From a virus (Duplodnaviria; Heunggongvirae; Uroviricota; Caudoviricetes): a DNA stretch of 7,909 bases. Below the pieces are notes generated by a model that saw only the letters and a list, made by a program, of their open reading frames with translations, was not told the origin of the DNA and made no database searches. Below, in pieces: positions 1 through 7,909 of this stretch; position 1 is the stretch's first letter, and every line of letters starts with the position of its first letter. Location of the stretch: IMG/VR virus record IMGVR_UViG_2778261498_000001, positions 1 through 7,909 of that record; one strand, written 5' to 3'. Both the position numbers and the translations under genes were made by a program.

Positions 1-2337
1 GGCGCGCCGTTCCGCTACAGCTTCAGCGCCCTGAAGGACCGCCATAATGCCGTTGAGGTGAACTGGATTGACCCGGACAACGGCTGGGAGACGGCGACAG
101 AGCTTGTGGAGGACACGCAGGCCATTGCCCGTTACGGTCGTAACGTCACGAAGATGGATGCCTTTGGCTGTACCAGTCGGGGGCAGGCACACCGCGCCGG
201 GCTGTGGCTGATTAAAACAGAACTGCTGGAAACGCAGACCGTGGATTTCAGCGTCGGCGCAGAAGGGCTTCGCCATGTACCGGGCGATGTTATTGAAATC
301 TGTGATGATGACTATGCCGGTATCAGCACCGGTGGTCGTGTGCTGGCGGTGAACAGCCAGACCCGGACGCTGACGCTCGACCGTGAAATCACGCTGCCAT
401 CCTCCGGTACCACGCTGATAAGCCTGGTTGACGGAAGTGGCAATCCGGTGAGTGTGGAGGTCCAGTCCGTCACCGACGGCGTGAAGGTGAAAGTGAGCCG
501 GGTTCCTGATGGCGTTGCCGAGTACAGCGTGTGGGGGCTGAAGCTGCCGACGCTGCGCCAGCGCCTGTTCCGCTGCGTGAGTATCCGTGAGAATGACGAC
601 GGCACGTATGCCATCACCGCTGTGCAGCATGTGCCGGAGAAAGAGGCCATCGTGGATAACGGGGCGCACTTTGACGGCGACCAGAGCGGCACGGTGAATG
701 GTGTCACGCCGCCAGCAGTGCAGCACCTGACCGCAGAAGTCACCGCAGACAGCGGGGAATACCAGGTGCTGGCGCGCTGGGATACGCCGAAGGTGGTGAA
801 GGGTGTGAGCTTTATGCTTCGCCTGACCGTGGCAGCGGATGACGGCAGTGAGCGGCTGGTCAGCACGGCCCGGACGACGGAAACCACATACCGATTCACG
901 CAACTGGCGCTGGGAAACTACAGGCTGACAGTCCGGGCGGTAAATGCGTGGGGGCAGCAGGGCGATCCGGCATCGGTATCGTTCCGGATTGCCGCACCTG
1001 CAGTGCCGTCGCGGATTGAGCTGACGCCGGGCTATTTTCAGATAACTGCCACGCCGCATCTTGCGGTTTATGATCCGACGGTACAGTTTGAGTTCTGGTT
1101 CTCGGAAACGCGGATTACCGATATCAGGCAGGTTGAAACCACAGCGCGCTATCTTGGCACGGCGCTGTACTGGATAGCTGCCAGTATCAATATCAGGCCG
1201 GGCCATGATTATTATTTTTACATCCGCAGTGTGAACACCGTTGGCAAATCGGCATTTGTGGAGGCTGTTGGCCAGCCGAGTGATGACGCATCCGGCTATC
1301 TGGATTTTTTCAAAGGAGAGATAGGGAAAACCCATCTGGCTCAGGAGTTGTGGACGCAGATTGATAACGGTCAGCTTGCGCCTGACCTGGCTGAAATCAG
1401 GACGTCCATTACGGGTGTCAGCAATGAAATCACGCAGACCGTCAATAAGAAACTGGAAGACCAGAGTGCAGCGATCCAGCAGATACAGAAGGTTCAGGTT
1501 GATACAAATAATAACCTGAACAGCATGTGGGCTGTGAAGCTGCAGCAGATGCAGGACGGACGCCTTTATATCGCGGGTATCGGTGCCGGTATTGAGAACA
1601 CCCCCGACGGTATGCAGAGTCAGGTGCTGCTGGCGGCAGACAGGATTGCGATGATTAATCCTGCGAATGGCAACACAAAGCCGATGTTTGTTGGTCAGGG
1701 CGATCAGATATTTATGAATGAAGTGTTCCTGAAATATCTGACGGCTCCCACCATTACCAGCGGCGGTAATCCTCCGGCATTTTCCCTGACACCGGACGGG
1801 CGGCTGACGGCAAAAAATGCCGATATCAGCGGTAACGTGAATGCGAACTCCGGGACGCTCAACAACGTCACGATTAACGAGAACTGCCGGGTTCTGGGAA
1901 AACTGTCCGCGAACCAGATTGAAGGTGATCTCGTTAAAACAGTGGGCAAAGCTTTCCCCCGTGACTCCCGTGCACCGGAACGGTGGCCATCAGGGACCAT
2001 TACCGTCAGGGTTTATGACGATCAGCCGTTTGACCGGCAAATTGTTATTCCGGCGGTGGCTTTCAGCGGTGCCAGACATGAACGGGAGAATAGCGATACT
2101 TATTCGTCATGCCGCCTGATAGTGAAGAAAAACGGGGCTGAAATTTATAACCGAACGGCTCTGGATAATACTCTGATTTACACGGGTGTTATTGATATGC
2201 CTGCAGGCAGTGGCGTAATGACACTGGAGTTTTCGGTATCAGCATGGTGGGTAAATGGCTGGTATCCCACAGCAAGTATCAGCGATTTGCTGGTTGTGGT
2301 GATGAAGAAAGCCACCGCAGGCATCAGTATCAGCTGA
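1..2337 (+). CDS. J: Host specificity (central tail fibre / tip) protein J, C-terminal ~779 codons; 5' end lies upstream of the window
   Basis: Frame 1 is open from base 1 to the TGA at 2335-2337, so the ATG at 58 is internal. The translation is long and non-repetitive and matches what I recall of lambda J, including its C-terminal receptor-recognition segment (…[13 protein letters not shown]). Immunoglobulin/fibronectin-like segments also appear, e.g. …[24 protein letters not shown]…. Confidence 0.9.
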
Positions 2338-2356
2338 ATTTTATAACCCCAATACG

Positions 2357-2383
2357 GGCGTCAGAAATGACGCCTTTTTTATT
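2357..2383 (+). terminator. Intrinsic terminator downstream of J
   Basis: Stem GGCGTCA (2357-2363), loop GAAA, stem TGACGCC (2368-2374), followed directly by TTTTTTATT. It starts 20 bp after the J stop codon. Confidence 0.65.
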
Positions 2384-2404
2384 GCAGAAAAGCGAGAGGT
2401 AATT

Positions 2405-3004
2405 ATGCGTAAATTATGTGCTGTTATTCTGTCCGCAGTAGTCTGGCTGGTTGCCGCTGGTACGCCAGCGAGCGCAGCAGAGCATCAGTCCACACTAAGC
2501 GCCGGGTATCTTCAGGCCCATACTGATATGCCAGGCAGTGATGACCTGAAGGGCATTAACGTGAAATACCGTTATGAATTTACGGACACGCTGGGGCTGG
2601 TGACGTCATTCAGTTATGCCAATGCCAAAGATGAGCAAAAAACGCATTACAGCGATACCCGCTGGCATGAAGATTCAGTGCGTAACCGCTGGTTCAGCAT
2701 GATGGCGGGGCCATCTGTACGCGTGAATGAATGGTTCAGTGCTTATGCGATGGCAGGTGTGGCTTACAGCCGTGTTTCGACGTTCTCCGGGGATTATCTC
2801 CGCGTAACTGACAACAAGGGGAAAACGCACGATGTGCTGACCGGAAGTGATGACGATCGCCACAGCAACACGTCTCTGGCGTGGGGAGCTGGCGTGCAGT
2901 TTAACCCGACCGAATCCGTGGCCATTGATATTGCTTATGAAGGCTCCGGCAGTGGCGACTGGCGCACTGACGGTTTCATCGTGGGTGTCGGTTATAAGTT
3001 CTGA
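2405..3004 (+). CDS. lom: Ail/Lom/PagC-family outer membrane beta-barrel protein (lambda Lom homologue)
   Basis: 199-aa ORF with an N-terminal signal peptide (MRKLCAVILSAVVWLVAAGTPASA/AE). Alternating hydrophobic beta-strand pattern and a C-terminal …GSGSGDWRTDGFIVGVGYKF ending in aromatic-X-Phe, as in lambda Lom. GAGAGG Shine-Dalgarno about 7 nt upstream of the ATG. Position between J and stf matches lambda. Confidence 0.9.
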   Translation: MRKLCAVILSAVVWLVAAGTPASAAEHQSTLSAGYLQAHTDMPGSDDLKGINVKYRYEFTDTLGLVTSFSYANAKDEQKTHYSDTRWHEDSVRNRWFSMMAGPSVRVNEWFSAYAMAGVAYSRVSTFSGDYLRVTDNKGKTHDVLTGSDDDRHSNTSLAWGAGVQFNPTESVAIDIAYEGSGSGDWRTDGFIVGVGYKF

Positions 3005-3031
3005 TTAGCCAGGTAACACAGTGTTATGACA

Positions 3032-3060
3032 GCCCGCCGGTTCAGGCGGGCTTTTTTGTG
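3032..3060 (+). terminator. Intrinsic terminator downstream of lom
   Basis: GCCCGCC (3032-3038), loop GGTTCA, GGCGGGC (3045-3051), then TTTTTTGTG. The T-run abuts the Shine-Dalgarno of the next gene. Confidence 0.65.
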
Positions 3061-3068
3061 GAGTGGAT

Positions 3069-5426
3069 ATGGCAGCAGTAAAAATCTCAGGTGTGCTGAA
3101 AGATGGTGCGGGAAAACCAATACAGAACTGCACTATTCAACTGAAGGCAAAGCGTAACAGCACCACGGTACTGGTGAACACGGTGGCCTCTGAAAATCCT
3201 GATGAAGCCGGGCGTTACAGTATGGACGTTGAGTATGGCCAGTACAGCGTCATCCTGCTGGTTGAAGGTTTTCCGCCTTCACATGCCGGGACCATTACCG
3301 TCTATGAAGGTTCCAGTCCGGGGACGCTGAATGATTTTCTCGGTGCCATGACGGAAGATGATGTCATGCCGGAGGCATTGCGTCGTTTTGAGGAAATGGT
3401 GGAAGAAGCGGCACGCAACGCCGAAGCCGCCTCTCAGAGCGCAGCGGCGGCAAAGAAATCCGAAACTGCAGCGGCATCATCGAAGAACGCGGCGAAAACC
3501 TCAGAAACGAATGCAGCTAACAGCGCACAGGCGGCAGCGACCTCACAGACTGCATCGGCAAACTCCGCGACAGCAGCCAAAAAATCAGAAACCAACGCGA
3601 AAAACAGCGAGACAGCCGCAAAGACGAGCGAAACCAACGCAAAGTCCAGCCAGACGGCAGCGAAGACCAGCGAAACGAATGCCAAAGCCAGTGAAACTGC
3701 GGCAAAAAACAGCCAGGTTGCAGCAGCCGAAAGCGAGAGCGCGGCAGCCGGTTCTGCGACTTCAGCAGCTGGATCAGCAACTGCTGCGGCTAACAGCCAG
3801 AAAGCTGCGAAGACGAGTGAAACTAACGCAAAGTCCAGCCAGACGGCAGCGAAGACCAGCGAAACGAATGCCAAAGCCAGCGAAACTGCGGCAAAAAACA
3901 GTCAGGATGCAGCGGCCCAAAGCGAGAGTGCCGCAGCTGGTTCTGCAAGTGCGGCAGCTAATAGCCAAAAAGCTGCAAAAACCAGTGAAACTAACGCAAA
4001 GACGAGTGAAACAAAAGCAGCAGCCAGCAAGACAGAAGCAACGTCAGCCGCAACAAGAGCAGAGAATGCAGCCCGGATTGCAGAAGATGCCGCTGATCCT
4101 GCTTCTGTCCCTCCGCTTCCTGATATCTGGCTACCCTTGAATGATTCTCTGGAAGCGATAACAGGGTATGCCCCGGGCTATAAAACAATAACCATCGGCA
4201 GTGATGAAATCACTGTACCTGTTAATGGCATATGCCAATTTAGCCGCGCTTCATCAGCAACTTATATTGATAAGTCCGGGCATATTACCGTAGCAGGTAA
4301 TAACGTTCCTCGTTTTGAAAAATATGGTTTGCTGATAGAGAATCAGCGAACAAACATGTTCGTAAATAGTTTTAATCCTGATGCGTGGAATAAAAGCGGT
4401 GGTATATCTGTAACATCATCAACAGATGAATTTGAGTTTAAATATGGACGTTTCACAGTAGGAAGTGAGATAGCAGGAACGACAACAGGGAGAAATATAT
4501 GCACAGTTGCTGGTAATAAAGGCATAGATGTGACTGGCGATGATCAATACAGTAAAGGTCCGTATGTTACCGCGTCGTTCAGGGTAAGAAGTGATCTCAA
4601 TGTTCGCGCACGTATCCGTTTTGAAGGGTATAACTCGGAAGGATACACTTTCCTTTGTGACGCCTATTTGTCATTACAGACTCATGAACTACAAATTACG
4701 GGTGGTAATGCCCAGCTATTAACAGCAAACTTTGAAATCGACCCTGGTAGTGGATGGATATATTTTCAGGCAACACTGAAATGTCTGCCAGAATGGGGAA
4801 TGGTTGGTACGCAGCTGCAAATTGCAGCCGACAGAGCAGTGGGGGCTTTTGCAACAGGTGACTGGATAGAAGTAACCACCCCGCAATTCGAGTATGGTGC
4901 CTGTGCAACTTCCTTTATCATAACGACAACAGAGCCAGCGACTCGTGCATCAGATTTATGTAAATTTCCGCTGATGAAAAATATGTATACCATGCCTTTT
5001 ACGTTCATGGTGGAAGTCCATAAAAACTGGTTTATTTCTCATAATGCTGCACCGCGAGTAATTGATACAGAAAACCATCAGTCAGGTGCTCCATTTATCA
5101 TGGGATTTGGCTCTTCTGGAACTATCAGTCAGGACGGTTATCCCTATTGTGATATAGGCGGGGCTAACCGACGTGTATATGAGTCATGCGGAGTAAGAGA
5201 TCTCGTTATGGGATTCAGGGTTAAGGCTGACGGCATGACATGCTCATTTGCAAATAAGCATATAAGCACAGAAACAAAAACAGTATGGAAATATATTCGT
5301 GAAGCTGCTGTGATTCGTATCGGGGGACAAACGACGACAGGATTACGACACCTTAATGGTCATATAAAAAACCTCCGTTTCTGGAACAGAGCATTGTCAG
5401 ATACGCAGCTTAAGGAATACGTATAA
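3069..5426 (+). CDS. stf: Mosaic side tail fibre protein: lambda Stf-like N-terminal domain, Ala/Ser/Thr-rich repeat shaft, and an unrelated lower-G+C C-terminal domain (possibly concanavalin-A/LamG-like)
   Basis: N-terminus MAAVKISGVLKDGAGKPIQNCTIQLKAKRNSTTVLVNTVASENPDEAGRYSMDVEYGQYSVILLVEGFPPSHAGTITVYEGS… matches my recollection of lambda Stf. GGAG lies 6 nt upstream of the ATG at 3069; the ORF track's GTG at 3063 is in frame but less likely. The C-terminal ~445 residues differ in composition and end in …LRHLNGHIKNLRFWNRALSDTQLKEYV, which resembles the terminal strand of LamG/ConA-like jelly-roll domains. The His-rich HxH motifs of the lambda Stf C-terminus are absent. Confidence 0.85.
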   Translation: MAAVKISGVLKDGAGKPIQNCTIQLKAKRNSTTVLVNTVASENPDEAGRYSMDVEYGQYSVILLVEGFPPSHAGTITVYEGSSPGTLNDFLGAMTEDDVMPEALRRFEEMVEEAARNAEAASQSAAAAKKSETAAASSKNAAKTSETNAANSAQAAATSQTASANSATAAKKSETNAKNSETAAKTSETNAKSSQTAAKTSETNAKASETAAKNSQVAAAESESAAAGSATSAAGSATAAANSQKAAKTSETNAKSSQTAAKTSETNAKASETAAKNSQDAAAQSESAAAGSASAAANSQKAAKTSETNAKTSETKAAASKTEATSAATRAENAARIAEDAADPASVPPLPDIWLPLNDSLEAITGYAPGYKTITIGSDEITVPVNGICQFSRASSATYIDKSGHITVAGNNVPRFEKYGLLIENQRTNMFVNSFNPDAWNKSGGISVTSSTDEFEFKYGRFTVGSEIAGTTTGRNICTVAGNKGIDVTGDDQYSKGPYVTASFRVRSDLNVRARIRFEGYNSEGYTFLCDAYLSLQTHELQITGGNAQLLTANFEIDPGSGWIYFQATLKCLPEWGMVGTQLQIAADRAVGAFATGDWIEVTTPQFEYGACATSFIITTTEPATRASDLCKFPLMKNMYTMPFTFMVEVHKNWFISHNAAPRVIDTENHQSGAPFIMGFGSSGTISQDGYPYCDIGGANRRVYESCGVRDLVMGFRVKADGMTCSFANKHISTETKTVWKYIREAAVIRIGGQTTTGLRHLNGHIKNLRFWNRALSDTQLKEYV
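3572..4010. repeat. Nested in-frame tandem repeats inside stf: 42-bp (14-aa) units inside a 189-bp (63-aa) higher-order repeat
   Basis: Peptide units AAK(T/K)SETNAK(S/A/N/T)S(Q/E)T recur many times. At DNA level, 3621-3651 (aagacgagcgaaaccaacgcaaagtccagcc) recurs at 3810-3840 (aagacgagtgaaactaacgcaaagtccagcc), an offset of exactly 189 bp, with near-identity continuing for over 120 bp. Confidence 0.8.
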
Positions 5427-5695
5427 TGCGGGATATAACATTACGATTCGATAACAGAGAACAGTTTAACGCAATTGTATATGACAGTGGCCTGTTCAGT
5501 CTTGAAGAAGAAAATGGGGTTCTTGTTGATGTTATTGGCTGCATTATTGATTACGAGGAGCCAGAAAACGAAAGATGTACAGGCATTGATCGCGGTGGTT
5601 TTTTCGTAAACATGAGGATTGTTGATGGCAGTAAAAACATATCTTCTTTAATGCCTTTCATTACGACAGATCAGCATGTAAGGACATGGGCTTAA
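5426..5695 (+). CDS. Hypothetical 89-aa acidic protein, translationally coupled to stf; function unknown (possibly fibre-associated chaperone or adaptor)
   Basis: The ATG overlaps the stf stop codon by one base (TAATG at 5424-5428). AAGGAA Shine-Dalgarno at 5412-5417, 8 nt upstream. Non-repetitive sequence with the same low G+C as its neighbours. The next gene starts 12 bp after its stop. I recognise no family. Confidence 0.55.
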   Translation: MRDITLRFDNREQFNAIVYDSGLFSLEEENGVLVDVIGCIIDYEEPENERCTGIDRGGFFVNMRIVDGSKNISSLMPFITTDQHVRTWA

Positions 5696-5707
5696 TGGAG
5701 TAAGACA

Positions 5708-6748
5708 ATGGTTACAAAAACAGTAATTCCTGATGACATCAAAACGCTAAAATCCGATGTTAGTAAACTACAAAACGATCAAGGAAGCTACGCAACAAAA
5801 TCATATGTAGACAGCAAAGATGAAACCGTTGGTGACTGGTCTGCTTCATGGTATCAGCAGGTATTGCCAACTAGCGGAGCTATATTTGGGCGAAAACTTC
5901 GCTCAACTCACAGGACGGCAGGTGTTGAGGATGCGTATTGCGAACTATACCTTAAAAAATGGATAGACAGTCCAGGGAACGCAATGGCGCGCCTTAACCT
6001 GAACGATAACGGTGAAAATATTTGCTGGGATTTTACCAACCTTTACGGCGGAACAATGATCTTCCCTGGTACTTCAGGTTATCTGAAAATGGGGAACTGT
6101 CTCATGTCGTATGGTGTGCGGGGAAGTAACGCGCTTATTAAGTTTGATAATACAGACACATTACAAATCAAATACGCTAATCATGGGTCAACCATGACAT
6201 TAAACACGCAAGGTACGGCGTATTCTGGTGTGTCGACGTTATTATGGGGAAATTCCAGTCGTCCAGTTGTTTATGAAATTAGGGATGATGGCGGGCTTTT
6301 TTTGTTTTATGCACAAAGGAACCCAGATAAAACCTATCAGCTTGAGATAAACGGGCCATGCAAGGCAACATCATTCGACCAGGTGTCGGACAGAGATCTT
6401 AAAGAAAACATTCAGGTTATTGATAATGCCACTGAGCGCATCAGATTAATGAATGGGTATACTTACCGTCTCAAGTCTAATGGTATGCCTTATGCTGGCG
6501 TTATTGCGCAAGAGGCACTTAATGCAATCCCTGAATCAGTTGGTAGCACAATAAAGTACAAGAGCGGGGACAATGGGTCTGATGGAGAAGAGGGAGAAAG
6601 ATACTATACCGTCGATTACTCAGGCGTAACGGGTTTGCTTGTTCAGGTAGCCAGAGAGTCAGACGACAGGATAACAGCACTGGAAGAAGAAAACGCAGAA
6701 TTAAGACAAAGATTATCTGCAATTGAGGCGGCGCTTGCGTCTAAATAA
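5708..6748 (+). CDS. Tail fibre / tail spike-like protein with a C-terminal intramolecular chaperone, autoproteolytic (peptidase S74-type) domain
   Basis: GGAG at 5697-5700, 7 nt upstream of the ATG. The C-terminal ~120 aa carry what I recognise as S74 hallmarks: …QV-SDRDLKENI… (Ser codon at 6386-6388; Ser/Lys dyad at the predicted self-cleavage site), …YAGVIAQEALNAIPE…, …YTVDYSGVTGLLVQVARE…, and a terminal heptad-like helix ITALEEENAELRQRLSAIEAALA. The N-terminal ~226 aa look like a short helical stretch followed by a beta-rich globular domain. Confidence 0.8.
   Translation: MVTKTVIPDDIKTLKSDVSKLQNDQGSYATKSYVDSKDETVGDWSASWYQQVLPTSGAIFGRKLRSTHRTAGVEDAYCELYLKKWIDSPGNAMARLNLNDNGENICWDFTNLYGGTMIFPGTSGYLKMGNCLMSYGVRGSNALIKFDNTDTLQIKYANHGSTMTLNTQGTAYSGVSTLLWGNSSRPVVYEIRDDGGLFLFYAQRNPDKTYQLEINGPCKATSFDQVSDRDLKENIQVIDNATERIRLMNGYTYRLKSNGMPYAGVIAQEALNAIPESVGSTIKYKSGDNGSDGEEGERYYTVDYSGVTGLLVQVARESDDRITALEEENAELRQRLSAIEAALASK
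6386..6745 (+). other. Predicted S74-type intramolecular chaperone domain, expected to be released by self-cleavage N-terminal to the Ser encoded at 6386-6388
   Basis: Motif SDRDLKENI plus the downstream conserved blocks described for the fibre-like CDS. Domain boundary is from motif position only. Confidence 0.65.
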
Positions 6749-6754
6749 TATTAA

Positions 6755-6778
6755 GGGGCCGAGCGCCCCGTTTTATTG
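6755..6778 (+). terminator. Possible weak intrinsic terminator between the fibre-like gene and the membrane-protein gene
   Basis: GGGGC (6755-6759), loop CGAGC, GCCCC (6765-6769), then GTTTTATT. The stem is short and the T-run is interrupted. Confidence 0.4.
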
Positions 6779-6790
6779 GGTAGGATGAAA

Positions 6791-7078
6791 ATGGATATAA
6801 CACCTTTCCTTCATGCGCTTTGTGCTGTGGCTGCGCAGCTACTGATTGGTCTTTTTACCGGGAACTGGGCTTACGGAGCGATAGCCGGTTGTACGTTCTT
6901 CATTGCGCGTGAACACACCCAGGCAGAATATCGCTGGATTGAAATGTTCGGGCATGGCAAGCGGATTAACATGCCGTGGTGGGGTGGTTTTGATCCACGT
7001 GCATGGGATGTGGCAAGCCTGATGGATTTTGCTGTGCCGGTGGTGGCGTGTCTGCTGATCTGGATGTTGATCCGTTAA
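6791..7078 (+). CDS. Small integral membrane protein (~95 aa, about three predicted transmembrane helices), unknown function; candidate prophage cargo gene
   Basis: Hydrophobic segments FLHALCAVAAQLLIGLFTG, WAYGAIAGCTFFIA and VASLMDFAVPVVACLLIWMLI. AGGA at 6782-6785, 5 nt upstream of the ATG at 6791; in-frame alternatives are ATG 6785 and the ORF track's TTG 6776. No lipobox. G+C is higher than the preceding two genes. It is the last gene before the att arm. Confidence 0.6.
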   Translation: MDITPFLHALCAVAAQLLIGLFTGNWAYGAIAGCTFFIAREHTQAEYRWIEMFGHGKRINMPWWGGFDPRAWDVASLMDFAVPVVACLLIWMLIR

Positions 7079-7095
7079 ATATAAAAAGTAAAAAG

Positions 7096-7127
7096 CCGCA
7101 GTAACTTGTCATGACAGGATACTGCGG
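7096..7127. other. 32-bp near-perfect palindrome 18 bp after the membrane-protein stop; terminator hairpin or protein-binding site
   Basis: CCGCAGTAACTTGTCA | TGACAGGATACTGCGG pairs at 15 of 16 positions (one A/A mismatch, one G-T wobble). Followed by TTGGCTGGTT, so no clean U-tract. Confidence 0.4.
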
Positions 7128-7341
7128 TTGGCTGGTTAACTTTCGATAGTGCGAGTATTGAATAATTTCCAGCCGTTACCGATTTTATATAACTGCAGTG
7201 GAATTATTCAACACACAGGCAAAACGGAATAAGCTGAGAAAAAAGCGTGCTTTCCCAATCTGGGGCAAATCACGTCTGAATGACACCTGAAAACAGGTGG
7301 TGGACTCAAGAAGGCTTGGAATATTCTTCTTTAATGTTATG

Positions 7342-7354
7342 TAATTCATTGATT
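7342..7354 (-). promoter_or_regulatory. IHF-consensus match in the presumptive attR P-arm
   Basis: TAATTCATTGATT fits YAANNNNTTGATW exactly (complement of WATCAANNNNTTR). It overlaps the first copy of the direct repeat TTGATTTTTCG (7349-7359). Confidence 0.4.
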
Positions 7355-7396
7355 TTTCGTGTACGATTTTAAGACATTTATTCCAAGAAAAATTTT

Positions 7397-7409
7397 TAAC
7401 TCTTTGATT
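7397..7409 (-). promoter_or_regulatory. Second IHF-consensus match in the presumptive attR P-arm
   Basis: TAACTCTTTGATT fits YAANNNNTTGATW exactly. It overlaps the second copy of TTGATTTTTCG (7404-7414), 55 bp from the first and about 20 bp from the tRNA-derived core. Confidence 0.4.
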
Positions 7410-7426
7410 TTTCGACTCTGTATCAT

Positions 7427-7488
7427 CGGTCTCGAAAACCGGAGTAGGGGCAACTCTACCGGGGGTTCAAATCCCCCTCTCTCCGCCA
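7427..7488 (+). tRNA. Partial tRNA-Ser(CGA) gene, 3' portion only (anticodon arm through CCA); presumptive att core / prophage-host junction
   Basis: CGGT-CTCGAAA-ACCGG (anticodon loop with CGA), long variable arm AGTAGGGGCAACTCTACC (class II tRNA), T-arm GGGGG-TTCAAAT-CCCCC, then acceptor 3' strand TCTCTCC-G-CCA. No complementary 5' acceptor strand (GGAGAGA) or D-arm exists upstream, so it is a fragment. It matches my recollection of the E. coli serU 3' half. Confidence 0.75.
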
Positions 7489-7770
7489 CTTTATCAATGA
7501 CTTATCTCCCGACTTCCCGCCTTGCTTTTCCTAAACAGAACAATCGTAGAATATTCTTGAAGGGTTAGATCGTCACTGTTTTCTGTTCGATACTGTGACA
7601 TTCAGCACTTGATTCGCTATGGATCTGACAGGAAGGTTTCGAGCGAAAATCTGCAATTATTCAGTCGTTTTCTTATCGGTCACCATTATTCTTTTAGACA
7701 TTGATCCTACAAAGCTGCCGCAAAGTTGGTGGTGGGAACTGAAGTTGCGTAGAGAAGGGGTCAATAATTG

Positions 7771-7809
7771 AGCAAAAAAAGGAACGCGGCCGTCAGATTA
7801 AAGCCGCGG
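7771..7809 (-). terminator. Possible intrinsic terminator on the minus strand in the flank
   Basis: On the minus strand: CGCGGC, a 12-nt loop, GCCGCG, then TTCCTTTTTTTGCTC. The stem is GC-rich with a strong T-run; the loop is long. Confidence 0.4.
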
Positions 7810-7909
7810 GACAAAGTCCATAATTTCCAAGAGTTGTTGAATTTCCCAGCTTTTTTGAAAGCCTTTGTATCATACTAACAAGTAAAAAAGGTTTAAATAC
7901 CAAAATTAA

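Follow-up and report, generated by a model that had tools for sequence, protein, structure and literature searches.

A conserved 89-residue phage protein encoded behind LamG-ended fibres may act as a Tfa-like accessory of the fibre tip

Trimeric phage fibres generally need a folding aid at their C-terminus, which is provided either in cis (S74-type) or in trans (Tfa, gp38, gp57A, DUF4376; PMC9608196, PMC10579305), and modules that combine a fibre with its chaperone are common to unrelated phage families (PMC10579305). In this study, we analysed a DNA stretch of 7,909 nucleotides (IMG/VR record IMGVR_UViG_2778261498_000001, positions 1 to 7,909; called the window here), which represents the tail end of a lambdoid E. 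coli prophage and contains, between two fibre genes (fibre 1 and fibre 2), the open reading frame ORF89 (5426-5695, + strand). We found that ORF89 is a real and constrained gene, that it is always linked to a LamG-type fibre terminus, and that it occupies the slot of a fibre chaperone. The family it belongs to is new and undescribed and most likely fills a known kind of role. Judging from sequence and gene neighbourhood, we give an about even chance to the reading that ORF89 is a Tfa-like, non-homologous accessory or chaperone of the LamG-ended fibre.

The functionally closest described systems are Tfa of phage lambda and the G protein of P2. Tfa-type chaperones possess a fibre-binding N-domain and a conserved C-terminal helical trimerisation domain, and 3:3 complexes of fibre and chaperone are known (PMC9608196). 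Like ORF89, the genes of lambda Tfa, P2 G and Mu U (PF02413) lie directly downstream of a fibre gene, and the TAATG that joins lambda stf to tfa is identical to the junction of fibre 1 and ORF89, which bears out the initial annotation of this DNA, where ORF89 had been placed in the Tfa position. Membership in this group nevertheless fails on both sequence and architecture. ORF89 shares no sequence similarity with lambda Tfa (no PF02413 match; hhalign probability 0.1% with a 78-sequence family alignment), and with 89 aa it has half the size of the Tfa-type proteins (~160-200 aa) and is predicted to form a single alpha/beta domain without a C-terminal helical trimerisation domain. Its client tip would be a LamG-type module, unlike the tips of lambda or P2.

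Intermolecular chaperone "caps" have been described for the Alteromonas phages V22 (gp27) and A5 (gp9, DUF4376) and for Pam3 (gp25), where the chaperone may stay bound at the distal fibre end (PMC10579305, PMC9608196). As with ORF89, fibre and cognate small downstream protein move as a module among phage families that are only distantly related (PMC10579305, PMC9608196). The cap proteins resemble S74-type chaperones or Tfa, with a helical bundle and tentacles, whereas the fold predicted for ORF89 differs; neither ORF89 nor fibre 1 matches PF13884 or DUF4376, and PF13884 was detected in fibre 2 only.

Among T5-like phages, the closest described two-fibre arrangement is that of DT57C, whose branched lateral fibres consist of the two proteins LtfA and LtfB (PMC4728585, PMC10713586). 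As in the window, the fibre proteins are encoded in tandem, the first carries the virion attachment domain, and the second presumably attaches to the first (PMC4728585, PMC10713586). In DT57C, however, both fibres contain S74 (PMC4728585), whereas fibre 1 of the window is LamG-ended and lacks S74, and the protein table of the structure paper numbers LtfB and LtfA consecutively as gp107 and gp108, without naming a small protein in between (PMC10713586), whereas the window has ORF89 at this position. The T5-like phages AKFV33 and IrisVonRoten bear an ORF89-type module at the same locus as the DT57C fibres.

The stop codon of fibre 1 (TAA, 5424-5426) overlaps the start codon of ORF89 (ATG, 5426-5428), which creates a TAATG on the + strand (5424-5428), and a Shine-Dalgarno-like AAGGA (5412-5416, + strand) can be read from the sequence 9 nt 5' of this ATG. 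In homologous loci, fibre and small gene overlap by 1, 4 or 8 nt, or are separated by a gap of 0-18 nt. The product is a stand-alone, non-repetitive protein of 10.2 kDa with a distinctly acidic composition (isoelectric point 4.38, 16 D+E versus 8 K+R). Both the coupled junction and the acidic, non-repetitive product had been noted in the initial annotation and hold as described. The ratio of non-synonymous to synonymous substitution rates (dN/dS; Nei-Gojobori) was 0.15 in the median and at most 0.34 over 74 allele pairs with dS 0.03-2, which are non-independent, and none of which is near neutrality. These values indicate that ORF89 is under purifying selection, and diversifying selection is not indicated. 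An absence of conservation or of coding constraint, considered initially as what would speak against the gene, was not observed: homologues are kept, and dN/dS is about 0.15. Of 5426 complete E. coli genomes, 141 contain ORF89 as an exact or at least 95% identical copy, and many more harbour other alleles. The same protein is encoded by the phages PhiR11_1 and PhiR11_1_star, and a near-identical one by PhiR55_1 and PhiR47_1, all four of which are sequenced ECOR-derived phages.

ORF89 was initially taken to belong to no recognisable family. This stands for Pfam (no match at E <= 0.1) and NCBIfam (no match) and does not stand for PHROG, where the whole of ORF89 matches the profile of PHROG 1361 (E 1.9e-30, residues 1-89 on positions 1-92 of 92). 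Since PHROG 1361 is a family of unknown function without functional annotation, membership is silent on function. Profile searches recovered well over 100 clusters (90% identity) of stand-alone proteins of 85-123 aa, the exceptions being evident fragments and two aberrant longer products (P0005 and P0132), which resemble artefacts of a frameshift or a deletion. None of these clusters contained an intact fibre fusion, and all of their members are unnamed and annotated everywhere as hypothetical. The family was recovered by profile and not by single-sequence searches: a single-sequence search of a 5.8-billion-protein collection and a phmmer search of a 1.84-billion-protein representative library returned nothing but fragments and, spuriously, a cadherin-like and an S-layer-like repeat protein, and scans of species-representative genomes yielded essentially nothing beyond one misbinned fragment of a metagenome-assembled genome. 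A literature search by accession numbers, locus tags and PHROG identifier found no paper on the family, and the protein is not characterised in the papers on DT57C, BASEL, AKFV33, the E. coli HS phages and chimeric stf (Brodel et al., Nature 2024).

Six residues (D3, F8, G38, R64, R86 and W88) are invariant across 78 family members, the C-terminus of which almost always reads R-x-W-A, and homologues at 25-45% identity retain the length, both termini and all six invariant residues. An AlphaFold2 model built from the 78-sequence alignment (mean pLDDT 82, predicted template modelling score 0.72) suggests a single compact alpha/beta sandwich domain with the order beta-alpha-beta4-alpha, in which strands are predicted for residues 2-8, 32-38, 41-44, 52-55 and 59-65, helices for residues 11-19 and 73-78, and a less ordered C-terminal tail. 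Foldseek detected nothing in the PDB at E <= 0.001, and a profile search of PDB sequences gave no family match and thus no relative of solved structure. In BFVD, the model retrieved only uncharacterised phage proteins of 64-105 aa. These included A0A6J5L008 and A0A6J5PC21 from uncultured freshwater Caudovirales, with template modelling scores of about 0.65-0.7 and 12-22% identity. From such structural likeness, the family may reach well beyond enterobacterial phages. The predicted fold itself gives no functional lead.

The gene neighbourhood is more informative. Annotated phages, E. coli genomes, IMG/VR and metagenome assemblies together supplied 59 loci, 58 of which contain the small gene, i.e., ORF89 or a homologue; the remaining one is the lambda reference, included for comparison. 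The upstream gene encodes a LamG-type terminus in 58 of the 58 small-gene loci, so that the association with a LamG-like tip that the initial annotation had suggested checking was found in every locus carrying the small gene. In fibre 1 of the window, this C-terminal strand region corresponds to 5328-5423 on the + strand (QTTTGLRHLNGHIKNLRFWNRALSDTQLKEYV). The consensus of the terminus is G-x-RHLFGH-I/V-RN-F/L-R-I/V-W-x-x-x-L-x-D-x-Q-x-x-E-x-V, and it ends between -8 and +18 nt from the start of the small gene. The linkage is kept even at 25-30% identity, in two SU10-like podophages (L006 and L059) and a 127-kb environmental phage contig (L057), which share a divergent terminus (...I-x-x-x-x-Y-Y-P-x-x-L-S-N-x-x-L-Q).

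The small-gene loci span lambdoid, P2-like, Mu-like and T5-like phages, Queuovirinae, SU10-like podophages and a phage-like plasmid. In a P2-like prophage (L043), baseplate gene J and gene I are followed by a fibre that combines the N-terminus of P2 H (PF12571) with a LamG-type end, and then by the small gene, which thereby occupies the slot of P2 gene G. In a lambdoid prophage (L021), the phage genes end with the small gene, and the host genes corA and dbpA come next; elsewhere, the pair of fibre and small gene adjoins a Mu-type baseplate gene (L039) or the module resides on a 106-kb plasmid (L012). The podophage L006 encodes two tandem LamG-ended fibre paralogues (1276-6267 of that locus; 781 and 783 aa, 36% identical) and a single small gene 3' of the second paralogue, which fits a trans-acting factor. 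Neither a tfa (Caudo_TAP) gene nor a tfa remnant was found in the window. In two loci, L011 (6418-6528) and L053 (5305-5415), a lambda-type tfa persists as a 36-codon 3' remnant (…LLEAWKKYRVLLNRVDTS.APDIEW), located 3' of a homologue of ORF100, a further gene of the window, and this remnant in related prophages argues that the cassette replaced an older Stf tip together with its Tfa. IrisVonRoten, which carries the module, is the only Markadamsvirinae phage of the BASEL collection that infects K-12 with restored O16 antigen, and the module is thus in functional use. In AKFV33, the ORF89 homologue is ORF136, which was left undiscussed in the AKFV33 paper, where the neighbouring fibres ORF137 and ORF135 were noted as novel.

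Unrelated cargo, i.e., a moron or an immunity or regulatory gene, or even a spurious reading frame would be in keeping with a small, acidic product that has no recognisable domain and shares its cassette with a probable moron, ORF100. We consider this highly improbable, given that the gene is present in strictly virulent phages (T5-like phages and Queuovirinae), where it lies inside the late fibre operon, that it is translationally coupled and under purifying selection, and that its partner gene is the same in at least seven genome types. Cargo or a spurious frame was therefore rejected on the grounds of synteny that includes virulent phages, coupling, and a dN/dS of about 0.15. Of the three possibilities initially offered for ORF89 (new fibre chaperone, adaptor between the two fibre proteins, or unrelated cargo), a fibre-associated role is thus well supported and cargo is not.

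The presumed client, fibre 1, is encoded by the stf-like gene at 3063-5426 (+ strand, 787 aa). Residues 5-134 match PF08400, the N-terminal attachment domain of lambda Stf (E 1.5e-66), and phrog_1419 covers the full length of the protein, which continues after the attachment domain with an Ala/Ser/Thr-rich repeat shaft and ends in a C-terminal globular module of ~440 aa; no S74 domain was detected with Pfam. When the window Stf was compared by BLASTP with 30 fibre-1 proteins, alignments extended from about residue 330-351 to the end. This shared module (4113-5423, + strand; residues 351-787) begins with PLPDIWLPLNDSL and occurs in lambdoid, P2-like and T5-like phages and in Queuovirinae, where it is preceded by attachment domains as different as those of lambda Stf (window, VogelGryff), P2 H (L043) and T5 Ltf (AKFV33, IrisVonRoten), among others. 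In several loci, the C-terminal region of homologous fibres matches PF13385 (Laminin_G_3; E 4.6e-08 in L045). A mosaic joint is visible in stf at ~4113-4200, near the start of the module at residue 351 (PLPDIW), where the guanine-cytosine content falls from 54% (3063-4200) to 42% (4200-5426). With 42% in the downstream part of fibre 1, 39% in ORF89 and 43% in fibre 2, a low content is common to all three, which suggests that the cassette was imported as a unit.

A head-spike-fibre-like domain is recognisable within the fibre 1 module (4332-4949; NF048003 GTA_spike_fiber, E 4.8e-13), and the module has a weak match to 6tb9, the head spike fibre of RcGTA. A different type of E. coli prophage (L008-L010, 3986-7390) has fibre 1, small gene and fibre 2 between head genes (portal and a protease-capsid fusion) and the tail tube gene, away from the tail tip end. 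This placement and the "head spike fibre" similarity raise the question where on the virion the fibre is mounted in that prophage type. The fibre 1 homologue of AKFV33, ORF137 (L004), migrated in a gel band of 95.8 kDa versus 83.1 kDa predicted, most likely due to anomalous migration of an acidic fibre protein; a stable adduct with the 10.2-kDa small protein would be another possible, less likely explanation. The window locus has an identical counterpart in E. coli G749, where it adjoins zinT. In the G749 copy (L001, 6638-9001, corresponding to 3063-5426 of the window), the stf reading frame is continuous over 787 codons; RefSeq splits it into a truncated pseudogene and a separate coding sequence annotated as "phage head spike fiber domain-containing protein".

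Fibre 1 without S74, a window without tfa, and a fibre 2 with an S74 domain of its own leave ORF89 as the only candidate partner of the fibre 1 tip. We rank the accessory or chaperone reading first because of the coupling of ORF89 to fibre 1, its chaperone slot in two classical genome types, and its linkage to the LamG-type end even where the rest of the cassette is absent. Under this reading, fibre 1 and ORF89 would be made in step via the overlapping stop and start codons. The conserved beta-sheet face and the invariant R-x-W-A tail of ORF89 could then bind the conserved framework of the fibre 1 module, and binding would help the distal end of fibre 1 to fold and register as a trimer. The conserved face comprises D35-I37-G38, G58-R64 and R86-x-W88. 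ORF89 would thereby play a role analogous to that of Tfa for lambda Stf or of gene G for the P2 fibre. Physical binding of ORF89 to the fibre and assisted folding are the steps that we infer.

Three considerations weigh against this interpretation. LamG-type heads may fold as independent domains, with no requirement for a trimerisation chaperone. Mere adjacency on the DNA could account in part for why the small gene is linked to the last codons of fibre 1. Finally, the perfect co-occurrence of the small gene with a conserved N-terminal motif of fibre 2, described below, would be explained equally well by an adaptor that is retained on the virion.

Fibre 2 (5708-6748, + strand, 346 aa) matches phrog_4563 over its full length and contains its own C-terminal intramolecular chaperone, a Peptidase_S74 domain (PF13884) at 6386-6541 (E 2.4e-12); its Shine-Dalgarno sequence, GGAG (5697-5700, + strand), lies 7 nt 5' of its ATG. 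Among the loci for which 1.2 kb or more of downstream sequence was available, fibre 2 is present in roughly 28 and absent from roughly 20, and those without it include lambdoid, P2-like, Mu-like, podophage and environmental loci. The spacing between small gene and fibre 2 is 9-12 nt. Fibre 2 bodies of 231-586 aa are mostly unrelated between phages, and the first 15 residues always fit the pattern TxTxIPxDIxxLK where fibre 2 follows the small gene; in the window, this conserved N-terminal motif is TKTVIPDDIKTLK (5714-5752, + strand). When phages were searched with the motif only, all five genomes that were opened (JLBYU40, APCEc03, BRET, SP15 and SelmaRatti) had the small gene directly upstream, with hidden Markov model E values of 1e-35 to 1e-42. 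TxTxIPxDIxxLK is a probable docking peptide, or plug. The dependence is asymmetric: the small gene implies a LamG-ended fibre, a plug-bearing fibre 2 implies the small gene, and the small gene without fibre 2 occurs.

This pattern leads to the main rival reading, a less probable one, in which ORF89 is a structural adaptor or cap that remains part of the virion, sits at fibre 1's distal end and serves as a socket for the fibre 2 plug, so that an extended or branched fibre is formed. It would then work in a manner analogous to the long tail fibre joint of T4, gp34-gp35-gp36, where genes for proximal fibre, small connector and distal fibre follow each other in this order and a separate non-fibrous protein lies between two trimeric fibre segments. 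The T4 connector gp35 has ~370 aa and is not known to be related to ORF89, and many ORF89 loci are without a distal fibre. An adaptor would agree with the order of fibre 1, small gene and fibre 2 with only 9-12 nt between the latter two, with the presence of the small gene directly upstream of every motif-bearing fibre 2 examined, including the five of five phages found by motif, and with the plug motif as the only conserved part among otherwise unrelated fibre 2 proteins. It would also agree with the fibre-1 proteins of two-fibre loci, which differ only in shaft length and have no added domain for docking, and with the lack of an intact fusion of the small protein to either fibre, as expected of a separate subunit with its own stoichiometry. 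The branched lateral fibres of DT57C are a precedent (PMC4728585, PMC10713586).

The ~20 loci without fibre 2, however, indicate that the small protein is not always accompanied by a distal fibre, and adaptor can thus not be its general, sole or ancestral role; they make us lean towards a partner of the fibre 1 tip over a pure adaptor. Between the window and L011, moreover, near-identical fibre 2 N-termini (93-98%) are paired with small proteins of only 33% identity. The only proteomic study found, on AKFV33, covered four gel bands and is uninformative on a 10-kDa protein. The two readings are compatible, as a chaperone that remains bound could be co-opted as a socket. A more far-reaching and slightly less probable version is that ORF89 is a retained tip subunit and acts as a universal socket on LamG-ended fibres for any second fibre bearing TxTxIPxDIxxLK.

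The exchange of gene segments among E. coli genomes illustrates how the cassette is recombined. We surveyed recombination breakpoints in the E. coli population over window positions 5689-6099 and 4800-5813. Several hundred E. coli genomes share residues 1-130 of fibre 2 at a DNA identity of ~90%, and there these residues stand behind other small-gene alleles that are too diverged for DNA-level alignment (33% protein identity to ORF89 in L011, the one that was opened). In these genomes the breakpoint coincides with the ORF89 stop codon, and in others it falls just after codons 15-35 of fibre 2, which suggests that the conserved plug motif serves as a recombination joint. On the other side of the small gene, one allele (91% identical between L013 and L015) occurs next to two distinct LamG alleles, which argues that the small protein recognises a conserved framework and not the variable surfaces, which are presumably receptor-binding. 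Correlations between the distance matrices of small protein, fibre-1 C-terminus and fibre-2 N-terminus (rho 0.27-0.66) were found for all pairs and are confounded by mosaicism.

The same alleles bear on the possibility that ORF89 is itself a receptor-binding adhesin at the fibre tip, like gp38 in T2- or S16-type phages. The fibre gene immediately precedes that of ORF89, which is linked to the distal module, and subfamilies have diverged strongly (25-45% identity), as an adhesin might. Within subfamilies, however, the protein is conserved, with a dN/dS of about 0.15 and no hypervariable segment. One and the same allele is found with different LamG alleles (L013 versus L015), and variability resides in the loops of fibre 1 and in fibre 2. 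Furthermore, the small protein is kept between two phages whose reported hosts or O-antigen specificities differ, AKFV33 (on O157:H7) and IrisVonRoten (on O16-restored K-12), whereas their fibre 2 differs. We therefore regard an adhesin as improbable.

In the window, the C-terminal part of J (58-2337) is followed by lom (2405-3004) and by a terminator-like hairpin (3031-3052) before the stf-like gene. A scan for terminator-like sites detected none between stf, ORF89 and fibre 2, and the transcription unit of stf, ORF89 and fibre 2 may end at a GC-rich hairpin 3' of fibre 2 (6755-6769, + strand). Downstream of it, ORF100 (6776-7078, + strand) encodes a hydrophobic protein of 100 aa that matches phrog_1443, a family of unknown function (E 8e-58). 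Homologues are located 3' of fibre 2 in L001, L005, L011, L012 (the plasmid) and L053; in L043 and L046, both P2-like, they come directly 3' of the small gene. ORF100 accompanies the fibre cassette in temperate phages only; it is probably not part of the fibre and is a candidate moron or exclusion factor. ARAGORN found no complete tRNA in the window. A tRNA-like 3' fragment lies on the - strand at 7434-7485, with a weak Rfam match (40.9 bits); on the opposite strand, the fragment matches the end of a tmRNA, and its translation includes a GGFEPP signature. This fragment is probably an attachment-site remnant that marks the end of the prophage.

Fibre folding and the functioning of chimeric fibres both depend on accessory proteins of the fibre tip. 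To engineer the host range of lambda-, P2- and T5-type particles, one therefore has to know which small gene must go with which tip. The ORF89 family is widespread in phages and prophages of E. coli and Salmonella. If ORF89 is a cognate chaperone or cap, it would represent a third solution for fibre-tip assembly beside the Tfa-type and S74-type ones, and would explain how fibre cassettes are transferred between sipho-, myo- and podophages. If the socket reading is true, lambdoid and T5-like phages, Queuovirinae and a phage-like plasmid would use a common plug-and-socket system, by which a second receptor-binding fibre could be added or swapped. A chaperone or cap that is also a socket would provide a simple handle for building branched fibres of dual specificity.

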